Shown here piece after piece: positions 9,118 through 40,965 of a stretch of 64,000 bases of DNA. The DNA lies in the NCBI GenBank assembly GCA_041740355.1, contig JBGSMD010000030.1, positions 96,001 to 160,000 on the forward strand, in the 5' to 3' direction. The position numbers and the translations under genes are program-made. This DNA is from Bdellovibrionota bacterium. Its GTDB lineage: Bacteria > Bdellovibrionota_C > UBA2361 > CALJRW01. Each line of letters begins with the position of its first letter. The stretch's first letter is position 1. The notes beneath the pieces were generated by a model. That model had not been told where the DNA came from. It did no database searches and worked only from the letters and a program-made list of their open reading frames with translations.

Positions 9118-9375
9118 GGAGGGCGAGCGTAATCTTGGTATTTTTATCAGACTTAGCCCTGGCGAAGTCTGAAGCCAAGTTACGCCGTAGAAGACAAAAC
9201 CAATACTCACCGCCGAGTTGCGTCGGGTTTGGTAGTATTTTCTACGGCAAAACCTGTTTTCCACCTCCGCTTCCCCCTTCGCTAAAGCTGCGGAGGACAA
9301 GAAAGCTATGGCGGACAAGGTAACAGGATTTTGCTCGTTCCCCCTTCTTTTCATTTTATTATCAAAAATGAAAAG
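9118..9375. repeat. Composite multi-hairpin intergenic element containing three 30-nt REP-like units (9143-9172 minus; nested pair at 9260-9319)
   Basis: Closing stem GGGCGAGC/GCTCGTTC, three internal stems and a terminal CTTTTCATTTT/AAAATGAAAAG hairpin; partial homologue at 36011-36107. Confidence 0.8.
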
Positions 9376-9391
9376 CTGTGAGTATATATCC

Positions 9392-10489
9392 TTATGCTAC
9401 TTTTTTTGTAGTCTTTTTACCTTTGACATCATCTTCTTTTTCCAGGCCCGCAGGATTTTCAATTAGATTAAACGCTACTTCTTTTGCGCTGGGCTTGTCA
9501 TTACCAACATCTAAAGTTTCCAAAATTAATCTCTTCATCTCTTGAGTTAGTTCTGGATTCTGAGTCATGTATTCCTTAGCACCTTCACGTCCTTGTCCCA
9601 GTCTTTCTCCTTTATAAGAGTACCAAGCGCCAGACTTATCGATAATGCCTTGGGTCACACCAAGATCTAGAATCTCGCCAATTTGATTAATACCTTCATT
9701 GAAGATGATATCAAACTCAGCTTCACGGAATGGAGGAGCAACTTTATTTTTTACAACCTTCACACGAGTTCTGCTGCCACTAACAACATCATTCTCTTTA
9801 ATTGAAGCAATTCTTCGGATATCCATCCGAACACTACTGTAAAACTTCAGTGCATTTCCACCAGCTGTTGTTTCGGGCGATCCAAACATCACACCAATCT
9901 TCATTCGAATTTGGTTAATAAACAGAATTGAACAATTTGCTTTATGAGTATGAGCCGTTAACTTTCTTAGGCCTTTACTCATTAAGCGGGCTTGCATCCC
10001 AGGTTGCATGTCAGTCATTTCGCCATCAATTTCGGCACGTGGTGTTAAGGCTGCAACTGAGTCGATAATTACGAATTGCACTGCACCAGAAAGAATTAAT
10101 GCTTCACAAATTTCTAATGCTTGCTCTCCACAATCTGGTTGGCTGACTAATAATTTAGAAGTATCAACACCAAGTTTTTTAGCATATCCAACATCAAGTG
10201 CGTGTTCGGCATCAATAAATACTACTGTTCCACCAGTTTTTTGAACTTCAGCAGCGATGTGCAGTGCTAGCGTTGTTTTACCTGAGGATTCTGGTCCATA
10301 GATCTCACAGATTCTTCCTTTAGGAAGACCGCCTATTCCTAGGGCAATATCCAAACCCAAACTTCCTGTTGAGTAGGATTCAATTTTCTCATGTGGCTTA
10401 TCACCTAAGTTCATGATTGTGCCTTTGCCATATCTTTTTTCGAGTTGGCTAATAGCAGTCTCTAATTCTCTTGTTTTATTGTCTGTCAT
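9392..10489 (-). CDS. recA: Recombinase RecA
   Basis: [40 protein letters not shown] and KNKVAPPF motifs. Confidence 0.99.
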
Positions 10490-10561
10490 GTTTATTTCCT
10501 TTTACAAATACTGCAAGTCATTTAGCGATTAGCTAAAGTCTTAAAATCTTTTTAAATATTA

Positions 10562-11188
10562 TTAATGTAATTCTCTCATTATTCCGATTACTCTTCCCTG
10601 AACTGTTACGCTATCTAAGGTAATTGGTTGTAGAGTAGGGTTAGCAGGTATTAGCATAACTTGCCCGCTCTTTAATCGACGATATTTTTTTAAAGTTGCT
10701 GTGCCATCATCTAAAAGTGCCACAACAATTTGTCCATTCTCTGCCGTATCTTGCTTACGAATTACAACAATGTCGCCGTCACAAATGTGCTCATCAATCA
10801 TTGACTCTCCGCTAACTTCCAAGCAATAAATTTCACCTTTGCCATTAATCATGCTTGGTGGAATATCAATCATTGTTTGTTGCTCGATGGCTTCAATCGG
10901 ACGACCGGCAGCAATTACTCCGGCAAGTGGAACTGCTGTTGGACTCATCTCTGGGGAATCACAATCAATTAACTCAATTGCTCCATCATCGCCTCTTTGG
11001 ATAAAGCCTTTGCTTTCTAGTCTTTCTAAGTGAAAGTGAGCAGTAGAAGGGGATTTTACTCCAATTGATGTGCAGATATCTTTAAGGGTTGGCGCAAAGC
11101 CATGCTCTGCCATGAAATTTCTTAAGAATTCCAATGTTTTACGTTGTACAGGGGCGAGACTACTAGTTTTATGGGAGTTAGTGCTCAT
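10562..11188 (-). CDS. lexA: SOS repressor LexA
   Basis: wHTH (PTLKDI..SPSTAHFHLERL), AAG cleavage site, GESM serine and TLKK lysine. Confidence 0.96.
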   Translation of the reverse strand: MSTNSHKTSSLAPVQRKTLEFLRNFMAEHGFAPTLKDICTSIGVKSPSTAHFHLERLESKGFIQRGDDGAIELIDCDSPEMSPTAVPLAGVIAAGRPIEAIEQQTMIDIPPSMINGKGEIYCLEVSGESMIDEHICDGDIVVIRKQDTAENGQIVVALLDDGTATLKKYRRLKSGQVMLIPANPTLQPITLDSVTVQGRVIGIMRELH

Positions 11189-11204
11189 AATATTTGAATA
11201 TCTT

Positions 11205-11252
11205 AAAATCCGTTAGGATTTTGTTATATCCAAAAATACTAGAAACCGTCAA
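11205..11252 (-). promoter_or_regulatory. Putative sigma70 promoter of lexA-recA (TTGACG-N18-TATAAC) with a downstream palindrome AAAATCC-N4-GGATTTT (candidate LexA operator)
   Basis: -35 at 11247-11252, -10 at 11223-11228 on the minus strand; palindrome 11205-11222 over the expected start site. Confidence 0.5.
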
Positions 11253-11348
11253 GAGGTTATTTTAAATATTTACTCCTCAAGTATTTCCTTCTACTAATTA
11301 GGCAAGTAATTTCATGACCTTAGCTATTTCATTAGATTATTGTATTGA

Positions 11349-11726
11349 TTATTCCTCTCGCCAAATCATTTGAAAAAAATCTGGGTCAACAGATTTTGCT
11401 GGGGAAGAGACCGGCAAAATCTCGGGAAACTGGCTAAGAATCGCCGCGACACCTAATTGAATAGCGCATGGTCTCCCCCCCAAGTAAGGCAAATTATCCT
11501 TGGTTGTAAGAAATGTTTCATAATTAAATGTTTTAGCTTGGTAACTATCTAAATCAACTTGACCATTTACTAAAGTAACATCATGAATTGTTCGGCAGTG
11601 ACCATCGGTAACATTTATAACTAGTGTATGTCCTGGAGTCGCAGTAGATCTAAAAAGCGAAGTTTTTTTGCCTTCAATTGTTGCCTCATGAATGCGGCCG
11701 TCAGAATCTGGTGCTTTAAAAATCAT
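11349..11726 (-). CDS. Hypothetical protein
   Basis: 125-aa ORF filling an intergenic gap; no recognised motif. Confidence 0.55.
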   Translation of the reverse strand: MIFKAPDSDGRIHEATIEGKKTSLFRSTATPGHTLVINVTDGHCRTIHDVTLVNGQVDLDSYQAKTFNYETFLTTKDNLPYLGGRPCAIQLGVAAILSQFPEILPVSSPAKSVDPDFFQMIWREE

Positions 11727-11830
11727 AATATTTACTACTTATTAATAAGATTTATAACATGATATCAAAATTCAGATGCTAAGCAATTTTAAAAAAACAA
11801 AGCAGCTAAGTCTGGTTAAACTTCTTACCT

Positions 11831-12604
11831 TTGGCTATATTGCAAATGGTGTTAAAACTTAAAATTACTAAAATTTGTGTAAATAAGGCTTTTTTGCTCA
11901 ACCTTCAAAAGACAGTACTCTTAATTCTAATTGTCCTTAGCCTATCTTCCTGCTCAATGTTTTACACAACTGAGCGAAATTACATTTATCAAGTAAAGCT
12001 AGGAGATACACTCGCTAGTATCGCCGCAAATTTTCAGATGGATTTCCGAGAATTAGCCCGCTATAACAGGATTACGAACGCTAATCAGATTATTGTTGGC
12101 CAGGTTTTAGAAATACCACTAAGTGCCCAAGTTAATGTAACTAGAAGGTCTGCTAATCCAATTGAGTTTGCCAAACCGGCCAAGTTTTTTAGAAAAAAAG
12201 GTAAATCTAACCACAATCTTCTAGCTTGGCCAATCAGAACTAATAAAGCTCGTCTAAGCTCAGACTATGGCTGGCGTTGGGCGAAATTTCATGAAGGCTT
12301 AGACATTGCTGCAGCTACTGGCACACCAATCTATGCTGCGCATTCTGGTCGCGTAATGATGAGTGGATATCAAATAAGTGGTTATGGTAAAATGTTAATT
12401 ATTCAAAAAGATAATATGCTAACCGTTTATGCCCATAACAGCGTTAACTATGTTGATGTTGGTCAGAATGTTAGTGCTGGACAACACATTGGCGATGTTG
12501 GTGCGACAGGGAAAGCCACAGGGCCGCACTTACACTTCGAAGTACGTTTCCGTAATTCCGATCGTAAATTTGTATCAGTTGATCCTGGAGAGTATCTGCC
12601 TTAG
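11831..12604 (+). CDS. LysM + M23 peptidase lipoprotein (NlpD/MepM-like); true start may be downstream
   Basis: Lipobox LSSC, LysM (YQVKLGDTLASIA), HEGLD, YAH and TGPHLHFEV motifs. Confidence 0.9.
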   Translation: MAILQMVLKLKITKICVNKAFLLNLQKTVLLILIVLSLSSCSMFYTTERNYIYQVKLGDTLASIAANFQMDFRELARYNRITNANQIIVGQVLEIPLSAQVNVTRRSANPIEFAKPAKFFRKKGKSNHNLLAWPIRTNKARLSSDYGWRWAKFHEGLDIAAATGTPIYAAHSGRVMMSGYQISGYGKMLIIQKDNMLTVYAHNSVNYVDVGQNVSAGQHIGDVGATGKATGPHLHFEVRFRNSDRKFVSVDPGEYLP

Positions 12605-12622
12605 AATAAAGGAATTAATTAA

Positions 12623-12696
12623 GTCCTCGTAGCTCAGCTGGATAGAGCACTAGTTTCCTAAACTGGGGGTCGGATGTTCGAATCATCTCGGGGACA
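12623..12696 (+). tRNA. tRNA-Arg(CCT), CCA not encoded
   Basis: Acceptor GTCCTCG/CGGGGAC, D arm AGCTCAGCTGGATAGAGC, anticodon loop TT-CCT-AA, T loop GTTCGAATC. Confidence 0.96.
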
Positions 12697-12893
12697 CTTT
12701 GACTTAAAGCGGAGATACTGTTTGGAAAAGTTCACTTGTCGCGCCGAAGCGACTTCAGATAGCTTGTAAAAATTTAAAGCTAGTTAGCAAAGATCGAGGT
12801 TTACAAGTCAACGTTTAATCGAAAAACTTAAACTTTATAATTAATAACTGACTTACTAAACATACCAAGTGAAAGTTAGATTTATTACCTAAT

Positions 12894-13925
12894 ATGCAAT
12901 ATTTAAAACTAAAATATTTATTGAGTTCCTTTTTCATATTTTTATCTTTAATAAATGATTCGTTTGCTGAGACCTTTCCAGAAATGAAGCTAATACCTGC
13001 TGGAGAATTCCAAATTGGTTCGCAGTCTGATGGTTCAATGCCAAATGAAAAACCTGTGTATCCAGTAAAGATAGCTAGTTTTTTGATGGACGAAACTCCG
13101 GTAACAAATCTATAATTTGAAAAATTTGTCCAAGCTACAAAGTTTCTTACGACTGCCCAACAGCCTTTAGATTGGGAAGAGCTAAAAAAACAAGTTCATC
13201 CAGAGACACCTAAACCTCCTGAGGATATTCTTAAACCAGGGTCATTAGTATTTGTTCCGCCTGACCATGCTGTTGATGTGGGTCACTTAGAGAATTGGTG
13301 CTTCTTGGAAAAATCCGCAAGGACCAAATAGTAATGTCAACGACAAACAAGATTATCCAGTTACTCAGGTTGGGATGATGCCAAAGTATATTGCGCTTGG
13401 GCTAAAAAACGCTTACCGACTGAAGTGGAGTGGGAATATGCGGCACGCGGTGGAAAATCGAGTGCTCGTTATTTGTGGGGTAATGAGTTTAAACCTAATG
13501 GAAAATGGATGGCAAATACATTCACCGGAACTTTTCCATTTAACAATACAATAGAAGATGGCTTTGAAAAAACTTCACCAGTAAAAGCTTTTCCTGCAAA
13601 CAATTATGGACTTTACGATATGGCTGGAAATGTCTGGCAGTGGACGGCAGATCTTTACAGTGTAAATTCCCACGTTGAGGCAGCCAGCGAAATTAAAAGC
13701 AAACAGTTGTCTTGTCATAGTAATCCACAAGGCCCTAAAGAAACATTCAATCCTATCCGCGCAGTTCCAAATTCCCCAGAGCGAGTAATCAAAGGGGGAT
13801 CTTTTTTATGTCATGTAAGTTACTGCGAAAGTTATCGGCCTTCTGCGCGTCGCGGCACACCACCTGATACAAGTTCAGAGCATGTGGGATTCAGATGTGC
13901 CAAAGATAGCAAATCAGAAATCTAA
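12894..13925 (+). pseudogene. Formylglycine-generating enzyme (SUMF1/FGE) pseudogene
   Basis: FGE motifs (MDETPVTN, RLPTEVEWEYAARGG, NNYGLYDMAGNVWQW, KGGSFLCHVSYC, GFRC) broken by an in-frame TAA at 13113-13115 and frameshifts near 13297 and 13371. Confidence 0.9.
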
Positions 13926-13981
13926 ATTTGTTTCTCTAGTATCTTTGATAAAAATTCTTGATTAGGGCATTTTTTAAAAAT

Positions 13982-14128
13982 AGTAATAACAAAAAATAAT
14001 TTACTGCCTGCCTAGCCGAAGCTTCAGCGAAGGCTGGTTAGTAAATTGCATAGCTAAAAACAACATTAATAGTGAGTTCAAGCAAAATCGTTAATCATTT
14101 AAAGTAATTTATTTATTGGACTCACTAT
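13982..14128 (+). repeat. About 147-bp composite repeat, copy A (inverted relative to 17830-18052)
   Basis: Near-identical to the reverse complement of 17830-18052 apart from a 77-nt insert there; contains a REP-like unit and a TAGTGAGT..ACTCACTA element. Confidence 0.9.
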
Positions 14129-14311
14129 ATCTTACTATCTCCTAAAAATATGCAATTTATCCTAAGTAAAAATCTGCTTGTTAATTGCAAATTTTTGAAG
14201 TAATTCAAAGTATAATGTAATTGTCTTTTGCCATTAAAGATCAAGCAAAAGTCTTATTCACAAACAATTTGATCTAAACGGATCTCAAATTTAAAAATAA
14301 GAGGAAACAAA

Positions 14312-15715
14312 ATGAATTTCAAAGACACTAAATTCCATTTCTTCCGAGAAGTTATCGCAGCTTCAATTTACGGAATATTGGCTTTAACATCAATTTCTAA
14401 TTTAGTTATCGCCGAAGAAGACACTTCTGCTGTGCAGTCTGATCAAGTGCAAATGGAAACAAGCCAAACTCAAGGCATTCTTCCTCTTCCAGATTATACA
14501 GGAGACATATGGAAAAGAAGTTTTCTAACTGGTGATTGGGGTGGAACTCGCACTGCTTGGGCGGAAAATGGAATCCAAATGGATTTGAATTATACTCAGA
14601 CTTTACAATCGGTGGAAGATGGAGGGCGTAATGAAAACTCAGCTTATAACGGTACGCTCGACTACAATGCAATTTTCGATTTACAAAAAATGGGAGTTTT
14701 GCCTGGAGCAATTGTTAAAGTTCGTGCTGAAACAAATTATGGTGAATCTGCAAATCGTAATTCAGGTGCGATCCTTCCAGTTAACACTGATGGGTTTTTT
14801 CCACTGACTGAACCACTTGATCAAGATATTCCGATAACTCTCACCAATTTAACATATATCCAGTTTTTATCAGAACAGTTTGCTCTAATGCTTGGTAAGT
14901 TTGACACACTCGATGCCGATACTAATGAGTTTGCTGGAGGACGAGGCACAAGTCAGTTCCAAAATTCAAACTTCGTTTTTAACTCTGCGGTCGCGCTTAC
15001 ATCTCCATATAGTACTTTAGGAACAGGGGCAATCTGGATGCCCTCTAAGAACATAACGGTCAGTAGTACAGTTTATAATACTAACGATTCTTCACGATCT
15101 ACGGGCTTCGATGATGTTGGTGATGGAGGATCTTGGGCAACTGAACTTCAAGCTAAGTATCGCTTGAAAAATTTACCGGGGGGGCAGAACGTCGGCTACA
15201 TTTATTCATTTAACAATGAGTTTTTTGAGCTTAATGGAAGATTCTCATTCCAACCAGGACAAGGTATTGTTGCTCCAAGAACTGATAAAACTTGGTCTGC
15301 GTACTGGAGTGGTTGGCAGTATCTTTATGTAGAAAATCCAAATGATGCACCAATTGATACAACTAATGGAAAAGTTGATCAGCAGGGCTTTGGATTATTC
15401 TCACGTTTTGGATTTGCGGATGATGATGTTAATCCAGTTGATTGGTCTTTAAGTGGTGGTCTAGGAGGAAAAGGTATCATCCCTAGTCGCGATGATGATA
15501 TGTTAGGGCTTGGGTACTTCTATACAAGCATCCAGAATGATAGATTTAGCGGAATTGATCTGGTCGCAGATTATGTAGATGGCTTAGAAGCTTTTTATAG
15601 CTTTGCTATTACGCCAGCTGTTAATCTGACTTTTAATGTGCAGAGTATTAAATCTGTCCAAAATAATCTAGATGAAGCAACAATACTCGGGTTGCGCTTA
15701 GGAATGCGTTTCTAA
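14312..15715 (+). CDS. Carbohydrate-selective porin, OprB family
   Basis: LTGDWGGTRT..AENGI, GKFDTLD, FGLFSRFGFAD and EAFY motifs; C-terminal LGLRLGMRF. Confidence 0.85.
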   Translation: MNFKDTKFHFFREVIAASIYGILALTSISNLVIAEEDTSAVQSDQVQMETSQTQGILPLPDYTGDIWKRSFLTGDWGGTRTAWAENGIQMDLNYTQTLQSVEDGGRNENSAYNGTLDYNAIFDLQKMGVLPGAIVKVRAETNYGESANRNSGAILPVNTDGFFPLTEPLDQDIPITLTNLTYIQFLSEQFALMLGKFDTLDADTNEFAGGRGTSQFQNSNFVFNSAVALTSPYSTLGTGAIWMPSKNITVSSTVYNTNDSSRSTGFDDVGDGGSWATELQAKYRLKNLPGGQNVGYIYSFNNEFFELNGRFSFQPGQGIVAPRTDKTWSAYWSGWQYLYVENPNDAPIDTTNGKVDQQGFGLFSRFGFADDDVNPVDWSLSGGLGGKGIIPSRDDDMLGLGYFYTSIQNDRFSGIDLVADYVDGLEAFYSFAITPAVNLTFNVQSIKSVQNNLDEATILGLRLGMRF

Positions 15716-15770
15716 TTTGTAATCCATCGCTCAGTTATTTTGTAGATTATTGATTGCTGATAGTGGTAGA

Positions 15771-15824
15771 TATAGTTATGACAAAAAGTAATTCCCTAAG
15801 GAAATTAATTTTGGAATCTCTATA
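15771..15824. repeat. TATAG...CTATA miniature inverted-repeat element
   Basis: TATAGTTATGACAAAAAGTAATTCC..GGAAATTAATTTTGGAATCTCTATA; arms shared with 26888-26953 and 37044-37098. Confidence 0.7.
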
Positions 15825-15830
15825 TTTACC

Positions 15831-16907
15831 ATGACATTTAGGCACTTCTTTATTTTATTATTAGTTTCTAGCTCATTATTAGCAGAAGAAAAATTCCAAG
15901 TTGGAAATATTTTGCCTTTATCAGGCGCGTACCATGAGTATGCCCATGAATGTCAGGAAGGTTTCAAAATGGCAGAACGGGAATCTTCCGATCTGTTAAA
16001 GCAAAAGATCCAATTTTTAGTAGAAGACGATCAATCGACCCCCAAGGGGGCTGTGAATGCACTTCAAAAATTATTAATTAATAAAAATTTATTAGCAGTT
16101 AGCCTTTTTAGCAGTTCCCCCGTGTTAGCTAATCAATCTAACCTTGTTACAAATCGTTTGCCTATGTTAGGACTTTCAGGACACCCCGATTTTTTGCCAA
16201 ACAATCCTTATGCAGTAAGTAACTGGCAAGAAACGTCGACAGAAGCGAAAGCTTATTTTAATTGGTTAACGGAAAATAATATTAAATCACTGGGAATCGT
16301 CACTTTTGAAAATGATTATCCTTTAGCCGTTAGAAAATACTTAAAGGAGTGGAGTGAGAAATCTGGGATTTCAATTTCCTTTGATGAAGAAGTTGTTGAT
16401 AGTGTCGATTTCAGGGCACTAATAGCAAGAATCAAGAAAAATCCCCCGGAAGTTTTTATGGTTAACTTGCTAGCCGGAACATTTGTTCCCTTTGTTCGTC
16501 AATTAAGAGAACAAGGCTATCAGGGGAAAATTTTATCTCTGAATGCTAATGGACGAAATGAGTATTTAAAGTCAATTGGAATAGAAGCTTCCAATGGTAT
16601 AATTTTTTTCGGACCAAACTATCATCAAGAATATTTTTTAAGTAGGCTTGCTCCAAATGTTTTGGAGGAAATGCCTCTGTCCTATGTTTACACTTGTTAT
16701 CTTGGTATGAAACTAATTACCACTAAGTTGGAAAAACGCTTAGAATCAAACACTCTAAGCAAAGAAAATTTTCTTCAGGATTTAATTTCGGCAGAATCTT
16801 TTATGATCGACGATCAAAAAATAGGCATTAAGAATCGCCGGATAAATTTTGATTTTGCAAAAATGGTGGCGCAAGAGGGGAGAATAGTCCATGATAGTGT
16901 TGATTAA
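15831..16907 (+). CDS. Periplasmic substrate-binding protein, LivJ/branched-chain amino acid type (orphan)
   Basis: Signal peptide; VGNILPLSG, EDDQSTPKGAV and DFRALIARIK motifs. Confidence 0.8.
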   Translation: MTFRHFFILLLVSSSLLAEEKFQVGNILPLSGAYHEYAHECQEGFKMAERESSDLLKQKIQFLVEDDQSTPKGAVNALQKLLINKNLLAVSLFSSSPVLANQSNLVTNRLPMLGLSGHPDFLPNNPYAVSNWQETSTEAKAYFNWLTENNIKSLGIVTFENDYPLAVRKYLKEWSEKSGISISFDEEVVDSVDFRALIARIKKNPPEVFMVNLLAGTFVPFVRQLREQGYQGKILSLNANGRNEYLKSIGIEASNGIIFFGPNYHQEYFLSRLAPNVLEEMPLSYVYTCYLGMKLITTKLEKRLESNTLSKENFLQDLISAESFMIDDQKIGIKNRRINFDFAKMVAQEGRIVHDSVD

Positions 16908-17014
16908 TTTATTAACTTGAGTTCTACATTAGATTCGTAACGAGATATGCAAAGTGATTGAATTTCACAAGCTTAAATTATTAAAACTTTAGACACACTT
17001 TATAAGAATTAAAT

Positions 17015-17554
17015 ATGTTAAAAAAAGGCATTTGTTTTTCATTGTTTCTTCTCGGATTATTTTATTTTAATCCAGTAAGTGCCGATCTTAATAATGGAGA
17101 TTGTTCTCTTGAATGGCCAAAAAATTGGGAAGTAACATCAATGCCTCAATTTAGAGATGATCATGATAACTCCTTTGGTGGAAAACGATTTCGGGCGATG
17201 TTAAAAGACAATGAGGATCTAAAAGTTGCTCTGGAATTTACCTGTATTCCTTTAGCTAATAGAAAACTAAGTTTAGAAGGAGAGTTTGAAGCGGCTTCAA
17301 AAGCAATTGAGGCAGGATATCAAAAGATGGGACTGGAGGCGCAGTTTAGTCCAGCAACAAAAAATCCCCTAAACCAATCATCCACTCTGGAAACAGAAAT
17401 TACTGTCAGTGCTCCAGAAATAACTCTTAAACAAGCCTTGTTAATTGCGATTGATTCTCAATATCTTTATTCGCTTAGCTACACAGGTGTAGAATCTGAA
17501 TTTCAAAATAATCTTAAGGCCTATCAGGAAGCTCGGGCTAGTTTAGCTAAGTAG
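17015..17554 (+). CDS. Secreted hypothetical protein, possibly DcrB/PsbP-like fold
   Basis: Signal peptide; SLEWPKNW start and YLYSLSYTG...FQ end resemble the Mog1/PsbP fold. Confidence 0.55.
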   Translation: MLKKGICFSLFLLGLFYFNPVSADLNNGDCSLEWPKNWEVTSMPQFRDDHDNSFGGKRFRAMLKDNEDLKVALEFTCIPLANRKLSLEGEFEAASKAIEAGYQKMGLEAQFSPATKNPLNQSSTLETEITVSAPEITLKQALLIAIDSQYLYSLSYTGVESEFQNNLKAYQEARASLAK

Positions 17555-17829
17555 TCATATTTTTAATTAACCTTCATTTTAAGATGTGAGTCTTAATTAC
17601 ATAGCCTAAAGCCTTAAAAAATGAGGATATTTTAACTGTCTCGATAATACAGATTTAATCAAATGAGTAGATCGGCAGGCCCTAATTTTTTTCTTGATTA
17701 TTCAATTATTATTTAGTAAATAATTTGCCCAAATATACTTGGTAAAGTTTGTCCATGTTTGAAACAGCCTCTTACGAGGCAGCTTTGCAAAACAAGCAAT
17801 TCTTGTTTTAAGGCTGACTGGCATATTCT

Positions 17830-18052
17830 ATAGTTAGTCCATAAAATAATTACTTTAAAAAACCAAGGATTTTGCTTGGACTCACTATTTATGTTGTTTT
17901 TAGCTATGCAAACTTGAATACTTGTCCGCCATAGCTTTAGCGAAGGTGGGAATCCAAGATTTGCATTAGCCGTAATGACTCTGTTTAATTTACTAACCAG
18001 CCTTCGCTGAAGCTTCGGCTAGGCAGGCAGTAAATTATTTTTTGTCATTACT
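17830..18052 (-). repeat. Composite repeat copy B, with a 77-nt insert (17911-17987) carrying a 30-nt REP-like unit (17921-17950)
   Basis: Manual alignment with 13982-14128. Confidence 0.9.
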
Positions 18053-18079
18053 TTTATATGTTTTAGTGTCCATTTAAAT

Positions 18080-19048: not shown

Positions 19049-19111
19049 ATTTACAATTTTATATTTGATGGCGACTCTTTTGATTAGCCAACTTATTGTT
19101 TTTACTAAATT

Positions 19112-21505: not shown

Positions 21506-21532
21506 TTAAGGTCACTTAATTATAAGTAAGAT

Positions 21533-21569
21533 TTGCGGTACTCAAGACTCCTTGTCTTGAGTACCGCAA
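21533..21569. terminator. Probable bidirectional terminator hairpin (16-bp stem)
   Basis: TTGCGGTACTCAAGAC-TCCTT-GTCTTGAGTACCGCAA between convergent genes. Confidence 0.7.
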
Positions 21570-24717: not shown

Positions 24718-24777
24718 TCCGCCTTTGCCAAGGCTTCCACCTTCGCTGAAGCTTCGGCAGACAAGTCGGCGCGATAG
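24718..24777 (+). repeat. Nested pair of 30-nt REP-like units
   Basis: TCCGCCTTTGCCAAGGCT[TCCACCTTCGCTGAAGCTTCGGCAGACAAG]TCGGCGCGATAG. Confidence 0.85.
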
Positions 24778-26807: not shown

Positions 26808-26834
26808 AATGTAATAATGCCTTGCCGTATAGAA

Positions 26835-26953
26835 ATAGTGAGTCCAATAAGTAGTTTCCGCAGGGAATTACTTTTTGAGGTTTACTTTAGTTATGACAAA
26901 AAATCACAAAACTAACTTTCCAATATTCGGAAGTTACTTTTGTCATAACTATA
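26835..26953. repeat. Two abutting (TA)TAG...CTA(TA) miniature inverted-repeat elements
   Basis: ATAGTGAGTCCAATAAGTAGTTTCC..GGAATTACTTTTTG and TAGTTATGACAAAA..TTTTGTCATAACTA. Confidence 0.75.
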
Positions 26954-27169
26954 AACCTGAGTTTTGGATAAGCTTTCTGTTACAAAAGTTGAACTAGTTG
27001 GAATTGCTGTGAAAAATCACAAATTGGTACTCGCTGTGGCGTGCCTTACACACCTCCGTTCCAATTTATGATTTTACTTCGCACTTCACAATTATTAAAA
27101 ATCTTCAATTTTTAATAATTTCAACTACTTCACCTTTCTCACAACGAATTCTTATCCAAAACTCAGGTT
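26954..27169. mobile_element. 216-bp MITE-like element with perfect 19-bp terminal inverted repeats
   Basis: AACCTGAGTTTTGGATAAG ... CTTATCCAAAACTCAGGTT, imperfect inner extension, internal hairpins, ATA on both flanks, no ORF. Confidence 0.75.
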
Positions 27170-27234
27170 ATAACTTGATGGAAGCAAGTATAACGAATAT
27201 CAGCTTGATTGCCCAGACTGTAAGCAGATCCTGG

Positions 27235-28842: not shown

Positions 28843-28882
28843 ATAGTATACTACGTCGCTCTAATTTACTATTAAACATAAA

Positions 28883-29494: not shown

Positions 29495-29528
29495 GTACAT
29501 TTAGGCAGGTACTAAATTTATTTCTAAA

Positions 29529-33644: not shown

Positions 33645-33777
33645 GAAATATTGGGTACTTACTTTACTATAGTAGAAAGATTTTTGACTTACTAGAAGAA
33701 AAATAAGGTCTTTCCCTAATATTTACGACTGGCATGGTTCAAATACTTAATGCTATGATTAGAGACTTTGATAAAGT

Positions 33778-34935
33778 TTGATTTTTCGAAATTTGCATAC
33801 TGTGCCTTACAAAACTTTAAATGATTCCGCTGTAACTGTTGCCCAGATTAACCTGGCAAATTTGGCACATAATTTTTCAGTTATAAAAAAATTAGCCGGT
33901 AGCGCTGGTGTTATGGCAATGGTTAAGGCCGATGCATATGGCCATGGGATGATTCCAGTTTCGGAGCGACTAATTTCTTTAGGGGTAGATTACTTAGGAG
34001 TTGCCTTTGTGGATGAGGGAATTGCTCTTCGTGAAGCTGGGATTAAAGTTCCGATATTAGTTACTGGAGGTATTCTTGGCAAGCAATTTGCACAGTTCTT
34101 AGAGTATGATTTAGAGATTACACTATCTTCCCTTTTTAAATTAGAAGAGTTGGAGGCTGTTTGTCAGTTAAAAAATAAAAAAGCCTTAGTGCATTTAAAA
34201 ATCGATACTGGTATGGAGCGAATTGGAATTCACTCAGCAAATGCCAGTAAGTTAATTGATCGGGCAATTAAGTCTAAGTGGCTTGAGATCAAAGGAATCT
34301 ACTCCCATTTTGCTTGTGCTGATCATACTGATACAAGTTTTACTAAACTACAATTAGAAAAGTTTTTAACTGTTACCGATTATTTTGAAAAACAAAACTA
34401 TAATGGCAAAGTATTAAGGCACATCACTAACTCTGCTGGACTTGTTACTTGTCCTGAAAGTTGTTTGGATTTAGTACGACCAGGGATTTTTCTTTATGGC
34501 TGTTACCCGAATAATAATTTTCATCTAGCAGTTGATCTGCTGCCAGTTTTATCACTAACTTCTAAAATTGTTTATTTTAAAGTGGTTCCTGCCAATACAG
34601 GGGTAAGCTATAGTCACAGTTGGAAATCTACGGAGCAAACAAGAGTCGTGACTTTACCGATTGGGTATGGCCATGGATATAGTAGGTCTCTGTCAAATCG
34701 GGCCGACGTTTTGATTCATGGAAAACGTTTCTCGCTTGTGGGAAATATTTGTATGGATCAGTTGATGGTAAATCTAAGAGATCAAGAAGCTTATGTAGAT
34801 GATTCTGTTATTCTTATTGGCAGTGATGGCCAAGAGAAAATTAGTGCGGAAGAACTAGCTGAATTAGTAGGAACAATCTCTTATGAAATTTTAACTAATC
34901 TTAAATCTCGAATTGCCAGGATTTATCAGAACTAG
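33778..34935 (+). CDS. alr: Alanine racemase
   Basis: VKADAYGHG, HLKIDTGMERIG, SHF, RPG, PIGYGHG, ICMDQ and TISYE motifs. Confidence 0.96.
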   Translation: MIFRNLHTVPYKTLNDSAVTVAQINLANLAHNFSVIKKLAGSAGVMAMVKADAYGHGMIPVSERLISLGVDYLGVAFVDEGIALREAGIKVPILVTGGILGKQFAQFLEYDLEITLSSLFKLEELEAVCQLKNKKALVHLKIDTGMERIGIHSANASKLIDRAIKSKWLEIKGIYSHFACADHTDTSFTKLQLEKFLTVTDYFEKQNYNGKVLRHITNSAGLVTCPESCLDLVRPGIFLYGCYPNNNFHLAVDLLPVLSLTSKIVYFKVVPANTGVSYSHSWKSTEQTRVVTLPIGYGHGYSRSLSNRADVLIHGKRFSLVGNICMDQLMVNLRDQEAYVDDSVILIGSDGQEKISAEELAELVGTISYEILTNLKSRIARIYQN

Positions 34936-34948
34936 TTTTTGAACTTCT

Positions 34949-36010
34949 ATGAACGATACTCAAATCTCCGCTAAACTCTTAAATGCTGCGGAATTATTCC
35001 ACTACGCAAATAAATTTCGGGGACAACTCTTCGTGATTCTTTTTAAAAATCAGGCTGATTTTTTTAGTTTAATTAGCGATATAAAAGTTTTGCATAAAGC
35101 TCAGATTAATTTGATTGTGGTCCTTGAGCAGGCTATGGATTTTGCTATGGTACAAGAGCATTGTCGCTTCGACCTTGAGTTTAAAACCTTAGAGATTACT
35201 GATTATTCCAAAAACACTGAGATCCTCATACTACAGGAACAAGGTTTTTGCCCTGTTGTAAATTTACACTTGGGTTCTACGATTGATTTGATTGAAGATC
35301 TGAACACTAAACGCTTAGTAAATAAGTTAATTTTTGCAGGGTCATATCAACCATTAATGATTGCTGATCAGGTGAAATATTTTATTTCTAAAGGTGATAT
35401 GATTCAAAATGTTCAACATAATGAATCATATAAATTATTAACGGAGTATTTTCATTTACTAGATCATCAAACTGACTTAGTTTTAATTCCAGCAAAACAA
35501 GGGGAATTATTTCGGGAAATCTTTACCTACATGGGTGCCGGAACATTAATAACTGCTCAAACTGAAATATTATTTCAGACTGCCTTACTAAAACAAGTTT
35601 CACAAATTTATTACATTTTACTGACCTATGTAGATGAAGGTTTAATTCTGCCCATTAGCGAAAAGGAAATAGCCGAAAGAATTAATGATTTTTTTGTGCT
35701 CAGTATTGATGAGGAAGTAATCGGGGTTGTATCAATCAAGATTTACGAGCAAGCGGCGGAAGTCGCCAAGCTTTGTACGCTCCCTAGATATAGAAATAAG
35801 GGTTTAGCCAGTAGTTTGATTCAACAAGTTATTGCTTATTGTCAGGAGCGCGATTTGGATTACTTGTTTGCCTTAAGCCGTAATAAAAATGTCTTGGATA
35901 TTTTTAGAAGCTTTGGATTTCAAGATTGTGAGAGAGAGGAGTTGCCTTTGACATGGCAAGCTGGTTACGATTTTGCAAGGCCCTCCAAGTCTTGTCGCTT
36001 GAAAATCTAG
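34949..36010 (+). CDS. ArgA-like N-acetyltransferase (eroded amino-acid-kinase-like domain + GNAT)
   Basis: YANKFRGQLFVI and EIFTYMGAGTLI match ArgA hallmarks; GNAT YRNKGLAS; ELP...Y...RPSK tail. Confidence 0.7.
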   Translation: MNDTQISAKLLNAAELFHYANKFRGQLFVILFKNQADFFSLISDIKVLHKAQINLIVVLEQAMDFAMVQEHCRFDLEFKTLEITDYSKNTEILILQEQGFCPVVNLHLGSTIDLIEDLNTKRLVNKLIFAGSYQPLMIADQVKYFISKGDMIQNVQHNESYKLLTEYFHLLDHQTDLVLIPAKQGELFREIFTYMGAGTLITAQTEILFQTALLKQVSQIYYILLTYVDEGLILPISEKEIAERINDFFVLSIDEEVIGVVSIKIYEQAAEVAKLCTLPRYRNKGLASSLIQQVIAYCQERDLDYLFALSRNKNVLDIFRSFGFQDCEREELPLTWQAGYDFARPSKSCRLKI

Positions 36011-36107
36011 GGGTTTGATTTTATTTTTCTACGGCAAAAAATAGCTAAGCTATTATTTTGCTCTCCGACCGGCATTCATTTTTTATTTAAAAATAGATGC
36101 CGGTCGG
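36011..36107. repeat. Partial copy of the 9118-9375 structured element
   Basis: GGGTTTG..TTTTCTACGGCAAAA-hairpin-ATTTTGCTC followed by a CCGACCGGCAT..ATGCCGGTCGG hairpin. Confidence 0.75.
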
Positions 36108-36307
36108 TTTATACTTGCTTTATCTTTCCTAAATGACTAGTATCATTACTTATTTGATATTTAACCAAGAATTCCTATAATTAGTATGAATTTTAAGGTT
36201 ATGCGGTTAATAAAATAATGCGATATTGTATTTTACCTGAAAATCGAGTTAGCTTAGCTCTCAAAAGGTAAAACAGCTTAAACGTCATTATAATTTAATT
36301 TGTTGTT

Positions 36308-36604
36308 ATGAATAAATCTGAACTCATTGAAAAATTAGCAATTAAATCAAACATCAGTATTCTACAGGCTGAAGAGATCATTAACTTAATCTTTCGAAAG
36401 ATGCGTGATACCTTGGTGAGTGATGGAAGAATTGAAATCCGTGGTTTCGGTAGTTTTGTTGTTAAAAAATACCAATCCTATAAAGGGCGAAACCCTAAGA
36501 CTGGTGATGAAATTCCAGTTCCTGATAAGAGATTGCCAGCTTTTAAAGTAGGTAAAGAATTAAAAGAGCGAGTCGATGCCTATCGCAAGCCTGGTGAGTC
36601 GTAG
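36308..36604 (+). CDS. ihfB: Integration host factor beta / HU family DNA-binding protein
   Basis: MNKSELI, RIEIRGFGSF, GRNPKTG and FKVGKELKERV motifs. Confidence 0.88.
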   Translation: MNKSELIEKLAIKSNISILQAEEIINLIFRKMRDTLVSDGRIEIRGFGSFVVKKYQSYKGRNPKTGDEIPVPDKRLPAFKVGKELKERVDAYRKPGES

Positions 36605-36611
36605 TTCTAAG

Positions 36612-36899
36612 ATGCATTTACCACAAAGAATCAAAGTTCAAGCCTTACTTCAATCTAGATACAGTGTGGAGCAGTGTAATGATTTTTCTGGATTAAATCG
36701 TCCTGCGAATTGGGATAACCGCGTATCTGGGCAGGATCAAATATTAACTACTGAAGGCCATGAAATTCTCCTAAGGTCTAATGGTGCGCAGTCTACACCG
36801 AAGGTTGGTTGGGTTCTGTTATTAACTTCGGGCAATCCCGCCGAAGGTTATGACTGGACATTGTATGGTATCCCTAAAGTTGTTCAGAATCAGTCGTAA
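36612..36899 (+). CDS. Small hypothetical protein (ATG at 36612 preferred over 36576, which overlaps ihfB)
   Basis: Open frame with protein-like composition (QSTPKVGW, WTLYG). Confidence 0.6.
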   Translation: MHLPQRIKVQALLQSRYSVEQCNDFSGLNRPANWDNRVSGQDQILTTEGHEILLRSNGAQSTPKVGWVLLLTSGNPAEGYDWTLYGIPKVVQNQS

Positions 36900-36951
36900 A
36901 AGATCTACCGCTTATTAAAATAAATTCTTATTAGATAAGTCTTTTGGGGGG

Positions 36952-37098
36952 ATATAGTTATTACAAAAAATAAATTACGTATAAATAAAATAGCGTAGCT
37001 TGTTTTTTGTAATAACTATATGTTTTTACTACGCTTGCGGGGGATAGAAAGCCCCAAAAAGTAGTTTCCTTACGTAAATTACTTTTTGGACTTTCTAT
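36952..37098. repeat. Two tandem TATAG...CTATA-type miniature inverted-repeat elements
   Basis: Perfect 19-bp IR ATATAGTTATTACAAAAAA (36952-36970 / 37003-37021) and ATAGAAAG..CCAAAAAGTA / TACTTTTTGG..CTTTCTAT (37044-37098). Confidence 0.8.
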
Positions 37099-37128
37099 AC
37101 TCAGTTTTTTAAATTTTATAAATGAAGC

Positions 37129-38133
37129 ATGAAAATTACTAATCCGAAAATTGCCATTGTTGGATGTACTGGGGTTGTTGGTACCGAGATGTTAAATGTC
37201 TTAAAGGAACGTAATTTTCCTTATGCCGAGATTCGACTATTAGCTTCAGCTAATTCGGCTGGCGAATTATATGATTTTGATGATCAAGAATTGATCGTTG
37301 AAGAGTTAAATGAAAATTCTTTTGAACAGGTTGATATTGCATTATTTGCTACAAGTGCCGAATTATCTGCTAAGTATGTTCCTTGTGCTCAAAAAGCGGG
37401 TGCAATTTCGATTGATAACTCTAGCTATTATCGGATGGATCCGAATGTTCCACTTATTGTGCCGGAGGTAAATGCCCACGCTATTCAAGCAAGTGATTTT
37501 ATTATTGCCAATCCAAATTGCTCCACGATTCAGTTAGTTCCAGTTCTAAAAGCTTTAGAAAAAGCCGCGGGAATAAAGCGAGTAGTTGTTTCTACCTATC
37601 AGGCAGTATCTGGGGCAGGAAAAGCAGCGATGGAAGAACTTTGGCAACAGACTGTTGGGATTTTAAATCAAAAAGAAGTTGCGCCAGAAGCATTTTTACA
37701 CCAAATTGCGTTTAACTGCATTCCTCAAATTGATGTTTTTCGTGAGGATGGTTATTCCAAAGAAGAAGCCAAAGTGATGGCAGAGAGCCGCAAGATTTTA
37801 GAGTTACCTGAACTTGCTATAACCTGCACTGCCGTTCGTGTTCCAGTTTTTAATTCTCATGCCGAGAGTGTTAATGTGGAGTTAAAACAAGATTTATCTT
37901 GGGAAGATTTAATAGCCAAGTTAAAAGATACTCCTGGTGTTAATGTTTCGACTGATGCCAGTGACTATCCAATGCAGATTAATGTATCTGGTACCGATGA
38001 AATTTTTGTCGGTCGAATTCGTCGTGATACTTCAGTTCCTTATGGTTATAATTTTTGGATTGTCGCGGATAATCTCAAAAAAGGTGCGGCACTTAATGCT
38101 GTGCAGATTGCCGAATTATTAATTGCCAAATAG
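37129..38133 (+). CDS. asd: Aspartate-semialdehyde dehydrogenase
   Basis: GCTGVVG, DNSS, NPNCST, STYQAVSGAG, RVPVFNSH and DNLKKGAALNAVQ motifs. Confidence 0.97.
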   Translation: MKITNPKIAIVGCTGVVGTEMLNVLKERNFPYAEIRLLASANSAGELYDFDDQELIVEELNENSFEQVDIALFATSAELSAKYVPCAQKAGAISIDNSSYYRMDPNVPLIVPEVNAHAIQASDFIIANPNCSTIQLVPVLKALEKAAGIKRVVVSTYQAVSGAGKAAMEELWQQTVGILNQKEVAPEAFLHQIAFNCIPQIDVFREDGYSKEEAKVMAESRKILELPELAITCTAVRVPVFNSHAESVNVELKQDLSWEDLIAKLKDTPGVNVSTDASDYPMQINVSGTDEIFVGRIRRDTSVPYGYNFWIVADNLKKGAALNAVQIAELLIAK

Positions 38134-38136
38134 TTA

Positions 38137-38898
38137 TTGCTCAATCGATATGCCATGCTCAATTACAAGATTATTTTGGAGTATGATGGTTCTAGTTTTC
38201 AAGGCTGGCACCAACAAAAAAACCAGGCTTCGATCTCACAAGAATTATTAAAAACTTTGGCCATCATTTTGCCGTCTCCAGTGAATGAGATATTTGCTTC
38301 GGGACGAACGGATTCGGGAGTACATGCCAGAGGACAGGTGGCAAATTTTCATTATCCCGATAATCTTGATCTACAGGCCTTAGCGCTTAGCATTAGCAGT
38401 TTATTACGTGGTCGAGTAGCTGTTATCGGAATAGAGATAGTTCCCGACGATTTTCATGCCCGTTACTCAGCTATAGGGAAAACTTATAGTTATCAAATTT
38501 TAAATCGTGCTGCGCCACCAACAATCAATCGAAATCAAGTTTGGCATGTTCCACAAAAATTAAATTTAGAATTAATGCAATTGCAATCTAAAGATTTAAT
38601 TGGTGAACACGACTTCACTAGTTTTCGTGCGAGCAATTGTGAAGCCAAGTCTGCTATTCGAACAATTACTGAAATTAATTTTCAAGTTAATGGGGATCTA
38701 ATTCGAATTGAAGTCTCGGGAGAGGGGTTTTTAAAGCAAATGGTAAGAAATATAGTTGGTACACTGGTCGATTTTGGAATGGGTAGTAGCCGACTAAAAA
38801 ACTCTTCCATTAAACAAATTTTAGATTCTAAGGATCGACATCTAGCTGGACAAACCGCCCCAGCAGAGGGACTCTGTTTGGAACAAGTTTTTTACTAA
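38137..38898 (+). CDS. truA: tRNA pseudouridine(38-40) synthase (start may be ATG 38155)
   Basis: YDGSSFQGW, GRTDSGVHA, GEHDFTSF, GFLKQMVRNIVG and TAPAEGL motifs. Confidence 0.96.
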   Translation: MLNRYAMLNYKIILEYDGSSFQGWHQQKNQASISQELLKTLAIILPSPVNEIFASGRTDSGVHARGQVANFHYPDNLDLQALALSISSLLRGRVAVIGIEIVPDDFHARYSAIGKTYSYQILNRAAPPTINRNQVWHVPQKLNLELMQLQSKDLIGEHDFTSFRASNCEAKSAIRTITEINFQVNGDLIRIEVSGEGFLKQMVRNIVGTLVDFGMGSSRLKNSSIKQILDSKDRHLAGQTAPAEGLCLEQVFY

Positions 38899-38954
38899 AT
38901 TAATATTTAGATTAGGCGAGATTGCCGTTAAATTAATAATTTCTAGATTTAATT

Positions 38955-40622
38955 CTATTCTTTTAGATCGTTAGCAAAATCCTCTGAGAAATCCAATTCG
39001 TCAGCATCAATCGTAAAGTTACCAAAGAGATAAGGAGTCAATTGTTTATTGGCTCTTTGAACTCCATAGCTAGTAGGGAGGGAGTTCGTATCAAGTTTGT
39101 CGGGCACAATAAAGTTTACACGTATACTCGTATTATCCGTATTTCGACGTCCAGATATTCTGATATTTCCTATTTGTGAGGTAATCTTATCTTTCGTACT
39201 AATTTCAAGCGTTGCCTCACCAAGAATAGTAAAGTCGGAAGTGCTTTCTTGCGTTAGCAGTGTTTTTGTAAGAGTTACTCTTCTTAGTTGTGGCTCAGGA
39301 TTAGATGTGAGGGGAGGAGAGGCTTTAAATGTTAAATTTTGAATTTTACCTTGATTAAAATTAAGTGTGGCGTCAATGAAAACAGAGTTAACATCTTTAA
39401 AAACAACTACTTGATCTGGGAGGGTCTTTTTAGGTGTCACTATAAGTTTCGGAGCTACAATAATTGGTGCGATCGGGCGCTTGTTAGCTTGATATTTTTC
39501 ATAAATTAAATATCCAAAGATTCCCAAAGCAAGAAAAGGGAAAACGTAGAGGATAGTTACAAAATGATTCTTCTTACTTTTCTTCACAATCGTTCTTGTC
39601 ACATATGGGGAATGAACAAGTTTTTGTTTAGTAAGATCGATCACCTCGCTTTTATAGTTTTGAGCAAATGCTTTTGGTTTGTTACCAACAGCTTCATCTA
39701 CAGAATTTTTTAATTCGTACGTAGCTCGATTGTGATTATCTAGATGATTTGAGTTGTGAGAGAATGTTCCCACATCCTGAGTATTAATTTCAGCTAGGGC
39801 TTCGACCATTTCTAAACATGTTTGAAAGCGATCTTTGGGAGAGATTGTAATCGCGTGATTTATCCAAAGTGCAAGCTTTTCAGGACAGTCATTGCGGTAC
39901 ATTCGAGGATCGTATGGGTTGACTTGAGTTCGCTGTTGCATCTTAATAAAGATATTATCTCCGGGAAAAGGGTCGGTTCCTGTAACCATTTCATAGGCGA
40001 TAATGCCAAGGGCATAAATATCTGTTCTTTCGTCTACTTTTTGATATTGAATGTACTCTGGGGCGATGTAGTTGGTTGATCCAAGGAGTGCTCCTGTTTC
40101 GGTCATGCGAGAATTTTTATCGATCATCGAAATCCCAAAATCGGAAATTTTAACAACATTATCTTCCGTTATTAAAATATTTTCTGGCTTTAAATCTCGG
40201 TGAATAATTCCGTGTCGGTGAAGTGCCGCAGTGCCGGCACACATTTGAAAAAGATAATCGATGATCAGTTCAATTGACAGTTGCGAATTAATCATCATTT
40301 TATCTGCTAGATCTCCACCACGAATATACTCCATCGTATAACCAACTAGCGGATCTTCTTTGATAAATTCGTAAGCTCGAACTACGTTTTCATGAGATAC
40401 ATTTAGGGCGGCAATAACTTCATTATGAAATCGCTTCATAATGGTTTCGTCGTTGGAAATCTCGGGCTTTAATACTTTCAAAACAAATAGCTTCTCTTGT
40501 AAATCTTTATGGGAGCAAAGATAAACATCTCCCATGGCTCCTTGTCCAAGAGCTGAAATAATTTTATAACGCCCAGAAATCATAGTGCCTGGAGTTATGC
40601 CTGAGAAATTTAAGTCATTCAC
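38955..40622 (-). CDS. Hanks-type Ser/Thr protein kinase with one TM segment and an extracytoplasmic domain
   Basis: LGQGAMGDVY, HRDLKPEN, DFG, YIAPE and DIYALG motifs; TM TILYVFPFLALGIFGYLIY. Confidence 0.93.
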   Translation of the reverse strand: MNDLNFSGITPGTMISGRYKIISALGQGAMGDVYLCSHKDLQEKLFVLKVLKPEISNDETIMKRFHNEVIAALNVSHENVVRAYEFIKEDPLVGYTMEYIRGGDLADKMMINSQLSIELIIDYLFQMCAGTAALHRHGIIHRDLKPENILITEDNVVKISDFGISMIDKNSRMTETGALLGSTNYIAPEYIQYQKVDERTDIYALGIIAYEMVTGTDPFPGDNIFIKMQQRTQVNPYDPRMYRNDCPEKLALWINHAITISPKDRFQTCLEMVEALAEINTQDVGTFSHNSNHLDNHNRATYELKNSVDEAVGNKPKAFAQNYKSEVIDLTKQKLVHSPYVTRTIVKKSKKNHFVTILYVFPFLALGIFGYLIYEKYQANKRPIAPIIVAPKLIVTPKKTLPDQVVVFKDVNSVFIDATLNFNQGKIQNLTFKASPPLTSNPEPQLRRVTLTKTLLTQESTSDFTILGEATLEISTKDKITSQIGNIRISGRRNTDNTSIRVNFIVPDKLDTNSLPTSYGVQRANKQLTPYLFGNFTIDADELDFSEDFANDLKE

Positions 40623-40840
40623 TAGTCTATTTTCCTTATCTTTTTAACTGAACGAGGGCAATTTGTTTTACAGCCGATTGAAACTTAATTAGTTCATCGG
40701 TGCTTTCATTTTAAATCTTAAGCTTTAGGAAAATTTTGCTACTATCGGTTTATAACCCTTGGTAGCTAATTTGCAAGGAGATTTTCACTACTTACACCTA
40801 TTTTCCTAGCTAAAGCTTTGTCTTAAAACACCCTTGATTT

Positions 40841-40965
40841 GCCACCTTCGCCAAGGCTAAGGAGGCACGATGATTCAAGTTTGAATGCCTAAAGACATCA
40901 AATACAGTAAGCCCGACAGGAATTCCGAAAGAATTTTACGGAAATTACTTCTTGGGCTTACTTTA
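40841..40965. repeat. 30-nt REP-like unit (40841-40870) and an AGTAAGCCC..GGGCTTACT inverted-repeat element (40903-40965)
   Basis: GCCACC-TTCGCCAAGGCTAA-GGAGGC; second element carries the GGAAATTACTT core of the TATAG family. Confidence 0.7.

Follow-up and report, generated by a model that had tools for sequence, protein, structure and literature searches.

A 30-Nucleotide Tagged Hairpin in a Bdellovibrionota Genome and in Other Bacteria, with a Candidate GIY-YIG Partner

The Unit and Its Copies in the Window

This work concerns a 64,000-nucleotide (nt) stretch of contig JBGSMD010000030.1 of a Bdellovibrionota bacterium, referred to below as the window, and a 30-nt hairpin unit that recurs between its genes. 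According to Pfam, the window genes form an ordinary housekeeping set, with no transposase families among them. The pattern CNNAGCYYYRGCGAAG, which describes the core of the unit, matches the window seven times, as against zero matches in each of 100 dinucleotide shuffles. A covariance model retrieves exactly seven full copies at 31–42 bits, the next match reaching 10.9 bits. All seven are intergenic, the intergenic share of the window being 10.6%. The copies at 14007-14037 and 17997-18027 belong to one duplicated segment and are counted once, leaving six independent sites. Besides the full copies, the window contains two older units, each split by a second copy (Table 1).

An original prediction for this window had proposed a unit with a covarying stem that sits mostly in the loops of unrelated hairpins and avoids genes. 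The stems, the half unit and the flanking arms that it listed were all found in their places, and the copies it named are real; two full copies, those at 9272-9301 and 24736-24765, both nested, had escaped it. Its hairpin positions were near enough, with small offsets (17998-18022 is corrected to 17997-18022, and 14012-14036 to 14012-14037). The half unit at 12735-12750 gives no match to the covariance model at E ≤ 5. A match of that prediction's core pattern at 6823, which lies inside a gene and has no stem, was rejected as chance.

The densest cluster of units lies directly behind recA, in a region where lexA-recA is followed by a RuvC-like open reading frame (ORF) (8477-11188). An inverted duplicated mosaic of intergenic repeats occupies 13979-14116 and 17841-18055, and its second copy has about 75 extra nt that contain the 17921 unit and its host hairpin.

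Table 1. Units and host hairpins in the window. Family A host hairpins are of the CTACGGC...GCTC type.
Feature	Position	Strand	Score or remark
Full unit with degenerate tag, stem TCAGAC/GTCTGA	9143..9172	+	31 bits, covariance model
Older unit split by a nested copy into 18 nt and 12 nt, which together give a full unit	9260..9319	-	score 29.9
Full unit that sits in an older unit's apical loop (TTT^A), without target duplication	9272..9301	-	41.8 bits
5' half unit, by resemblance only, 38 nt downstream of tRNA-Arg (12623-12697)	12735..12750	+	
Full unit whose 5' arm has an additional base, in the loop at the centre of a family B palindrome (13998-14047)	14007..14037	+	
Full canonical unit inside the host hairpin 17907-17965	17921..17950	+	40.9 bits
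Twin of 14007-14037 in an inverted duplicated segment (97% over 69 nt)	17997..18027	-	host arms 17987-18036
Older unit split by a nested copy	24718..24777	-	score 31.3
Full unit that sits in an older unit's internal loop (GA^A), without target duplication	24736..24765	-	38.4 bits
Full unit between CTTGA/TCAAG arms (40833-40879)	40841..40870	-	flanks homologous to those of 17921
Host hairpin, family A, loop holds the 9143 unit	9127..9185	.	
Family A host hairpin that contains the nested pair; inverted partner of 9127-9185	9247..9334	.	
Empty family A copy with a short loop, without a unit	36029..36063	.	
Empty family B copy	15782..15812	.	further empty copies 26845-26875, 37055-37085

Anatomy, Covariation and Spread

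Scanning GTDB genomes with the 18-nt pattern CCNNAGCYTTRGCGAAGG gave at least 122 loci, 80 of them with long flanks; all GTDB counts given here are among the matches listed and are not family totals. These loci carry 27 phylum-level labels, 18 loci being unlabelled, and the commonest groups are Pseudomonadota, Bacteroidota, Verrucomicrobiota, Acidobacteriota and the Patescibacteria groups. A slightly wider pattern gave 132 matches, from which a stem filter, together with the need for enough flank, kept 113 for the sequence logo and 111 for in silico excision. Chance matches to the pattern, namely L060, L061, L030, L048 and a small number more, were mostly removed from these two sets by the stem filter; they stayed in the covariation count, which has 138 rows, 128 of them distinct.

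The unit consists of a 4-nt unpaired CYTG tag and a 26-nt hairpin with a purine-rich 3x3 internal loop. The hairpin has a covarying stem of 6 bp, the internal loop GWA/GAA and an inner stem of 3 bp with a TT loop. The logo of 113 copies displays the CYTG tag, the 6-bp stem, the GWA/GAA loop and a GC-YTTR-GC tip, with CTTG, CCTG and TTTG as the dominant tags, and its information ends at positions 1 and 30. Columns 9, 10, 13-15, 17, 18 and 20-26 are invariant by the search pattern, while the tag and the outer four pairs are free to vary.

Covariation was measured by pair counts and by mutual information corrected for the average product (MIp). Across the 128 distinct rows, chance matches included, 94.3% of the stem cells are paired, and the covariation score is 0.402 vs. 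0.150 in shuffled alignments (0/500 as high); in slid registers it is at most 0.11. The four best MIp pairs are stem pairs, so the predicted covariation of the stem is borne out. The first and last loop bases covary as well (CTTG 79, TTTA 42, TTTG 4, CTTA 1; n = 126). For three covarying pairs all eight combinations are present, which makes one inherited split unlikely. Wobble cells in the stem are G.T more often than A.C (37 vs. 14, p = 0.002), so that the purine-rich strand is the folded one.

No Rfam family matches the unit; only tRNA, rRNA, RNase P and riboswitch families are found around or beside copies. A 'COG2827' RNA motif has reportedly been described, and Rfam gave no such match. 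With one unit as the BLASTN query, plasmids and phages yielded chance-level matches only. Among the papers whose text could be searched, none was found to describe the unit or its peptides, and the text supplements of PMC3733652 contain no match to it.

Several deviating forms were seen. At locus L075 (7891-8260), in a Sphingorhabdus genome, helix P3 of the RNase P RNA consists of a unit. Some variant units, whose inner stem is longer, recur after successive tRNA genes at L011 (12403-13102), L026 (6333-6766), L050 (77-231) and L074 (10150-10260). The Acidobacteriota loci L020, L051, L057, L067 and L121 contain REPIN-like, head-to-head fused dimers of the unit without tags. An apparent opposite-orientation nesting in Acidobacteriota was rejected as loop insertion, being a head-to-head fusion of two units.

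Insertion as Exact Blocks

The ends of the unit are fixed by copies that have entered other copies. Exact removal of the 30 nt at 9272 and at 24736 restores a full older unit in each case, and further nested copies rejoin to intact units at L084, more weakly at L035, and by eye at L050 and L074, the last of which shows double nesting. What enters is thus a block of exactly 30 nt; the target is not duplicated, and relative to genes both orientations occur. Flank repeats of 2, 3, 4 and 5 nt are near shuffled levels (11 vs. 7.0, 4 vs. 1.6, 0 and 0, respectively; n = 113), and a model with target-site duplication was therefore rejected. Identity as a MITE (miniature inverted-repeat transposable element) was likewise set aside, the ends being asymmetric, target duplication lacking and nested copies rejoining exactly. 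An origin of the outer stem in the target is ruled out by nested copies that differ in their last base at the same target.

The nested insertions occupy GA^A or TTT^A loop positions. Junctions of the 48 copies with an intact tag favour purine^A/T (38 and 39 of 48), with neither a fixed dinucleotide nor a fixed target tetranucleotide. Units within 7-nt tandem repeat tracts were observed at L008, L009, L021, L063, L074 and L116.

Linkage to tRNA Genes and to a Small GIY-YIG Gene

Ten of 124 copies lie at most 10 nt from a tRNA gene, a distance found for 0.22% of random positions, and both orientations of the unit occur after tRNAs. In 4 of the 122 loci a gene for a GIY-YIG protein of 80 amino acids (aa) lies 6–92 nt from the index unit. 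The order at these loci is the tRNA 3' end, often an inverted unit or variant, the unit, and the gene. A fifth locus has the same layout with variant units, one of them 20 nt before the GIY-YIG gene. A sixth, more distant GIY-YIG gene occurs without the unit at L063, where a small gene (15600-16100) follows a tRNA-like sequence split by a different palindrome; this arrangement suggests that further repeat-nuclease pairs exist.

The linkage was examined in a second way, with homologues picked by protein similarity alone, independently of the DNA pattern. Peptides of six residues coded by the unit occur in mis-extended N-termini of GIY-YIG homologues in 2/10, 19/43 and 15/72 cases, the background being 0.5–1%, and are absent from C-terminal extensions (0/9 and 0/43). 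Several of the N-terminal extensions are, by eye, translated tRNA ahead of the unit, and no units were seen 3' of the gene at L026 and L029. There is thus a tight linkage between the unit and a single clade of GIY-YIG genes for single-domain proteins of 80 aa, the unit lying on their 5' side.

Residues Y5, Y17, G19, R27, H31 and E63 of the protein are kept in at least 95% of 120 homologues, and we take them to be the likely catalytic residues. Its closest solved relatives are UPF0213 and SLX1. The ESM Atlas confirms the GIY-YIG assignment and adds nothing further, and NCBIfam has no model for the protein. TBLASTN at E 1e-5 found nothing in plasmids or phages; at E ≤ 10, plasmids gave 15 distant relatives, and the unit is absent in the four examined. 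As a side observation, the unit at L035 adjoins a four-helix-bundle (23S rRNA IVP) gene.

Copies inside Genes

Intergenic siting is not general. Among the 80 units in long loci, 42 lie within some ORF and 20 within Pfam-verified genes, and six more genic copies come from short loci, so that 26 of the final 111 stand in frame in Pfam-verified genes. The claim that the unit avoids genes holds for the window and does not hold for the family. This genic share is nevertheless a depletion, as ORFs cover about 90% of the long loci by crude ORF calls.

Inside a gene the unit adds ten amino acids. In alignments of Tgt and of a mercuric-reductase-like protein the unit coincides with a clean 10-residue gap, while for KdsB the alignment to solved structures is ambiguous at this point. 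UvrD, RecF and ligase are also among the unit-bearing genes. In Tgt, the unit-coded peptide is present in 15 of 120 close homologues. It occupies three hot spots, and at two of these both orientations are found; reversed Tgt proteins contain no such peptides. The use of the hot spots in both orientations indicates that survival at tolerant sites shapes where copies are seen, and targeting therefore cannot be read off present positions. Other inserts of 7–23 aa at the same hot spots were seen in Tgt homologues P0121-P0240 and possibly stem from other repeat families.

Comparison with Known Systems

The unit works like the REP/RAYT, NTS/Ssn and Rickettsia palindromic systems, yet it fails their defining tags. 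The NTS/SRM repeats of the Ssn nucleases are likewise oriented hairpins of about 30 nt with an unpaired tag, one active strand and a distribution over many phyla, and they are linked to a small single-domain GIY-YIG gene (PMC11893778). They differ in their tag, which is (C)GTC, whereas the unit has CYTG and an internal 3x3 loop (PMC11893778). In the NTS-ssnA-NTS arrangement the repeats flank the gene on both sides, while the unit is found 5' only and is anchored at tRNAs; and 2% of NTS are intragenic in N. meningitidis, whereas the unit is often intragenic (PMC11893778). None of 116 GTDB units and none of 7 window units fits the degenerate SRM pattern, which does recover both repeats around L124. 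The 80-aa partner of the unit shares only 38% identity over 66 aa with the SRM-flanked 98-aa protein of L124, and 33–38% identity with two Ssn-like plasmid proteins, which have a different C-terminus. As a proxy for membership of cd10448, the Ssn clade, this comparison points to another clade; a tree of 15 GIY-YIG proteins was poorly resolved and too weakly supported to be used.

The unit has the traits of REP-type repeats in being an imperfect hairpin of 20–40 nt with many copies, mostly extragenic. The GTAG REPs and REPINs associated with RAYT (TnpA-REP) also have a short hairpin with conserved stem mismatches and, at its foot, a 5' tetranucleotide, and they occur as dimers and clusters, mostly extragenic and some in frame in genes (PMC8266576, PMC3733652). 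The GTAG tag is found in only 1 of 116 units, and the unit, unlike REPINs, inserts singly and not as a doublet, with no Y1 transposase found among the ORFs or segments scanned beside it. At locus L038 the unit is inserted into a GTAG-type hairpin. At L086 and L109 it is inserted into what we take to be CGTC-like repeats.

CGTC repeats and Rickettsia palindromic elements resemble the unit as palindromes that stand in frame in housekeeping proteins, including products of DNA-repair genes (PMC3733652). They differ in that the CGTC tag occurs in 0 of 116 units, that the length of the unit is fixed at 30 nt, and that the unit spans many mostly uncultured phyla. The ends of IS200/IS605 elements share the ssDNA (single-stranded DNA) hairpin, a guide-like tetranucleotide and the lack of target duplication (PMC8266576); the unit, in contrast, is one hairpin and not two ends around a gene, and it has no fixed target tetranucleotide.

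Proposed Mechanism and Alternatives

We find about as much reason to accept as to doubt that the unit is a non-autonomous mobile ssDNA hairpin of the tagged-palindrome (REP/NTS) kind with a non-Ssn GIY-YIG nuclease as its partner, its mobilisation by that enzyme being what we infer. In the proposed mechanism, the 80-aa nuclease would bind the folded purine-rich strand in transient ssDNA and would nick both next to it and in target DNA that is accessible, loops (GA^A, TTT^A) and junctions of the purine^A/T type being mildly preferred, and host repair would seal the 30-mer into the target. Purifying selection would then filter the sites: copies would survive next to tRNA genes, in loops of intergenic repeats that the cell can spare, and where a protein tolerates an insert, a length of 30 nt keeping the reading frame. 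The more specific claim, that an SLX1/UPF0213-like GIY-YIG protein of 80 residues is the mobiliser of a single 30-nt ssDNA hairpin, is offered tentatively and with more doubt than belief.

A number of observations weigh against this proposal. Units occur only on the 5' side of the GIY-YIG gene, in contrast to an IS or to NTS-ssnA-NTS, and might therefore serve there in regulation or binding; the 64 kb of the window contain no gene of this clade; and two of the linked genes are broken (a frameshift at L029, a stop at L094). A few copies point to a length of 29 or 31 nt rather than 30, three have flank repeats of 7 nt, at least one of these within a tandem repeat, and intact CTTG or CCTG tags are limited to 48 of 113 copies. 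With standard DNA parameters, which do not model sheared G.A pairs, the folds of several single units are no better than those of shuffles; a tandem of such pairs in the internal loop would account for this. Finally, GIY-YIG enzymes cut by hydrolysis and are not known to carry out strand transfer, so that the joining step lacks an explanation.

That last difficulty would disappear if the unit were moved by an unseen HUH/Y1 transposase of the RAYT or IS200/IS605 type, with CYTG as the guide tetranucleotide and the GIY-YIG protein as a passenger or a second unit-binding enzyme, since HUH chemistry would account for joining. This explanation is unlikely in our judgement, though it deserves serious attention. 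A mismatched hairpin that has a 5' tetranucleotide at its foot and leaves no target duplication is what REP and IS608 ends share (PMC8266576), and RAYT genes are present at about one per genome (PMC5581495) and hence would rarely be neighbours in a random sample. Against it, no Y1/HUH transposase family was found among 41 + 95 + 130 = 266 ORFs or segments at or beside units, whole loci not having been scanned, while GIY-YIG recurs; the lack of a fixed dinucleotide at the junction also argues against it.

It is improbable that the unit is a host cis-element, such as a terminator, an RNA stabiliser or the cut site of an Ssn-like restriction or repair nuclease, that spreads passively via break repair or gene conversion, with covariation arising from template switching at quasi-palindromes. 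Siting downstream of tRNAs and upstream of one gene family would suit such an element, as would the copy that forms helix P3 of RNase P RNA and the more perfect stems of the window copies 9143 and 40841. SsnA itself restricts transforming DNA, with no transposition shown for it (PMC11893778). Exact 30-nt blocks in unrelated enzymes, in other repeats and in the unit itself, however, need a dedicated insertion process, and the mismatched internal loop persists, whereas palindrome correction would erase its mismatches.

Little credence is left for the view of the original prediction that targets are picked purely by structure, as extruded ssDNA loops, and that genes are avoided for this reason. 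Here a tight loop is one which, after in silico excision, has at most 8 nt and is closed by at least 5 Watson-Crick pairs. In the window, 5 of 7 sites and 4 of 6 independent sites are tight, as against 8.9% of 5755 intergenic positions (binomial p = 0.0008), and with at least 4 closing pairs 5 of 6 independent sites stand against 26% of intergenic positions. The rejoined flanks in the window thus form hairpins more often than random intergenic positions do, and this, the wholly intergenic siting there and the nested insertions at loop positions speak for structural choice. Elsewhere the effect is weak: 12 of 111 GTDB copies are in tight loops, about twice the 6.1% of neighbouring positions and the 4.8% of swapped flanks, and in the intact-tag subset 10 of 47 have an inverted-repeat score of at least 8, vs. 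6–11% in controls. The remaining 99 copies lie outside tight loops. At a spanning fold energy (ddG) of -3 kcal/mol or below there is no excess among GTDB copies (30% vs. 30% for neighbours and 23% for swapped flanks), and at -5 kcal/mol the values are 18% vs. 13% and 7%. By class, the tight-loop excess is non-significant in genes (4/26, p = 0.06) and among other copies (8/74, p = 0.08), and it is nil beside tRNA genes (0/11). Since 22 of the 26 genic copies have no tight hairpin and the Tgt hot spots are used in both orientations, pure loop targeting as a general rule is largely refuted. The enrichment in the window may instead combine modest structural targeting with a genome rich in intergenic palindromes.

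The host hairpins, described earlier as unrelated, are indeed unrelated to the unit; most are related to each other and fall into two repeat families, and two hosts are the unit itself. The hosts at 9127 and 9247 are homologous, and those at 17907 and 40833 are homologous to each other and, judging by a loose alignment, probably to this pair. In the hairpin 17907-17965, probably of family A, the unit has the opposite orientation. The 14.0- and 18.0-kb copies have a host of the second family (B), of which empty copies also exist in the window. The own flanks of the older unit at 24718-24777 form no hairpin. An AT-rich palindrome family with conserved, MITE-like inverted ends was seen in filled and empty states at 15768-15825, 26832-26960, 36950-37100 and 40915-40965.

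An RNA route, in which a processed tRNA trailer is reverse-transcribed or reverse-spliced into DNA, is very improbable: it would fit the adjacency to tRNA 3' ends and the tolerance of G.T/G.U wobbles, but no reverse transcriptase occurs among the neighbours scanned, both orientations follow tRNAs, the linked enzyme belongs to a DNA nuclease family and the unit has no Rfam match.

Other Features of the Window

Three further features of the window were recorded. An element of about 215 nt at 26955-27170 has 19-nt terminal inverted repeats and internal hairpins, and it resembles elements with such repeats from RAYT-associated families. At 12900-13925 a formylglycine-generating-enzyme-like gene is in pieces, its intact ORF being the 3' part only. 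An AbiEii-type toxin gene at 50524-52051, with an unannotated upstream partner, is likely a type IV toxin-antitoxin pair.

Significance

How short palindromic repeats spread is an open question. CGTC repeats have been reported to be without a dedicated transposase (PMC3733652), and the Ssn paper puts forward a mobile origin of its repeats as a hypothesis and no more (PMC11893778). For the unit considered here, the ends are defined with single-base precision, there is a prediction of the active strand, and an enzyme of 80 aa is named as a candidate, so that the question becomes testable with oligonucleotides. The work may also yield a new sequence- and structure-specific ssDNA nuclease. The unit explains recurrent 10-aa inserts in proteins of uncultured bacteria, such as those in Tgt, as well as mis-called N-termini.

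If a GIY-YIG protein is indeed the mobiliser, this would represent a new transposition chemistry without a covalent tyrosine intermediate, and the unit would be among the smallest mobile elements known. Throughout the bacteria, and notably in Patescibacteria, it would then supply core proteins with defined insertions of 10 amino acids.

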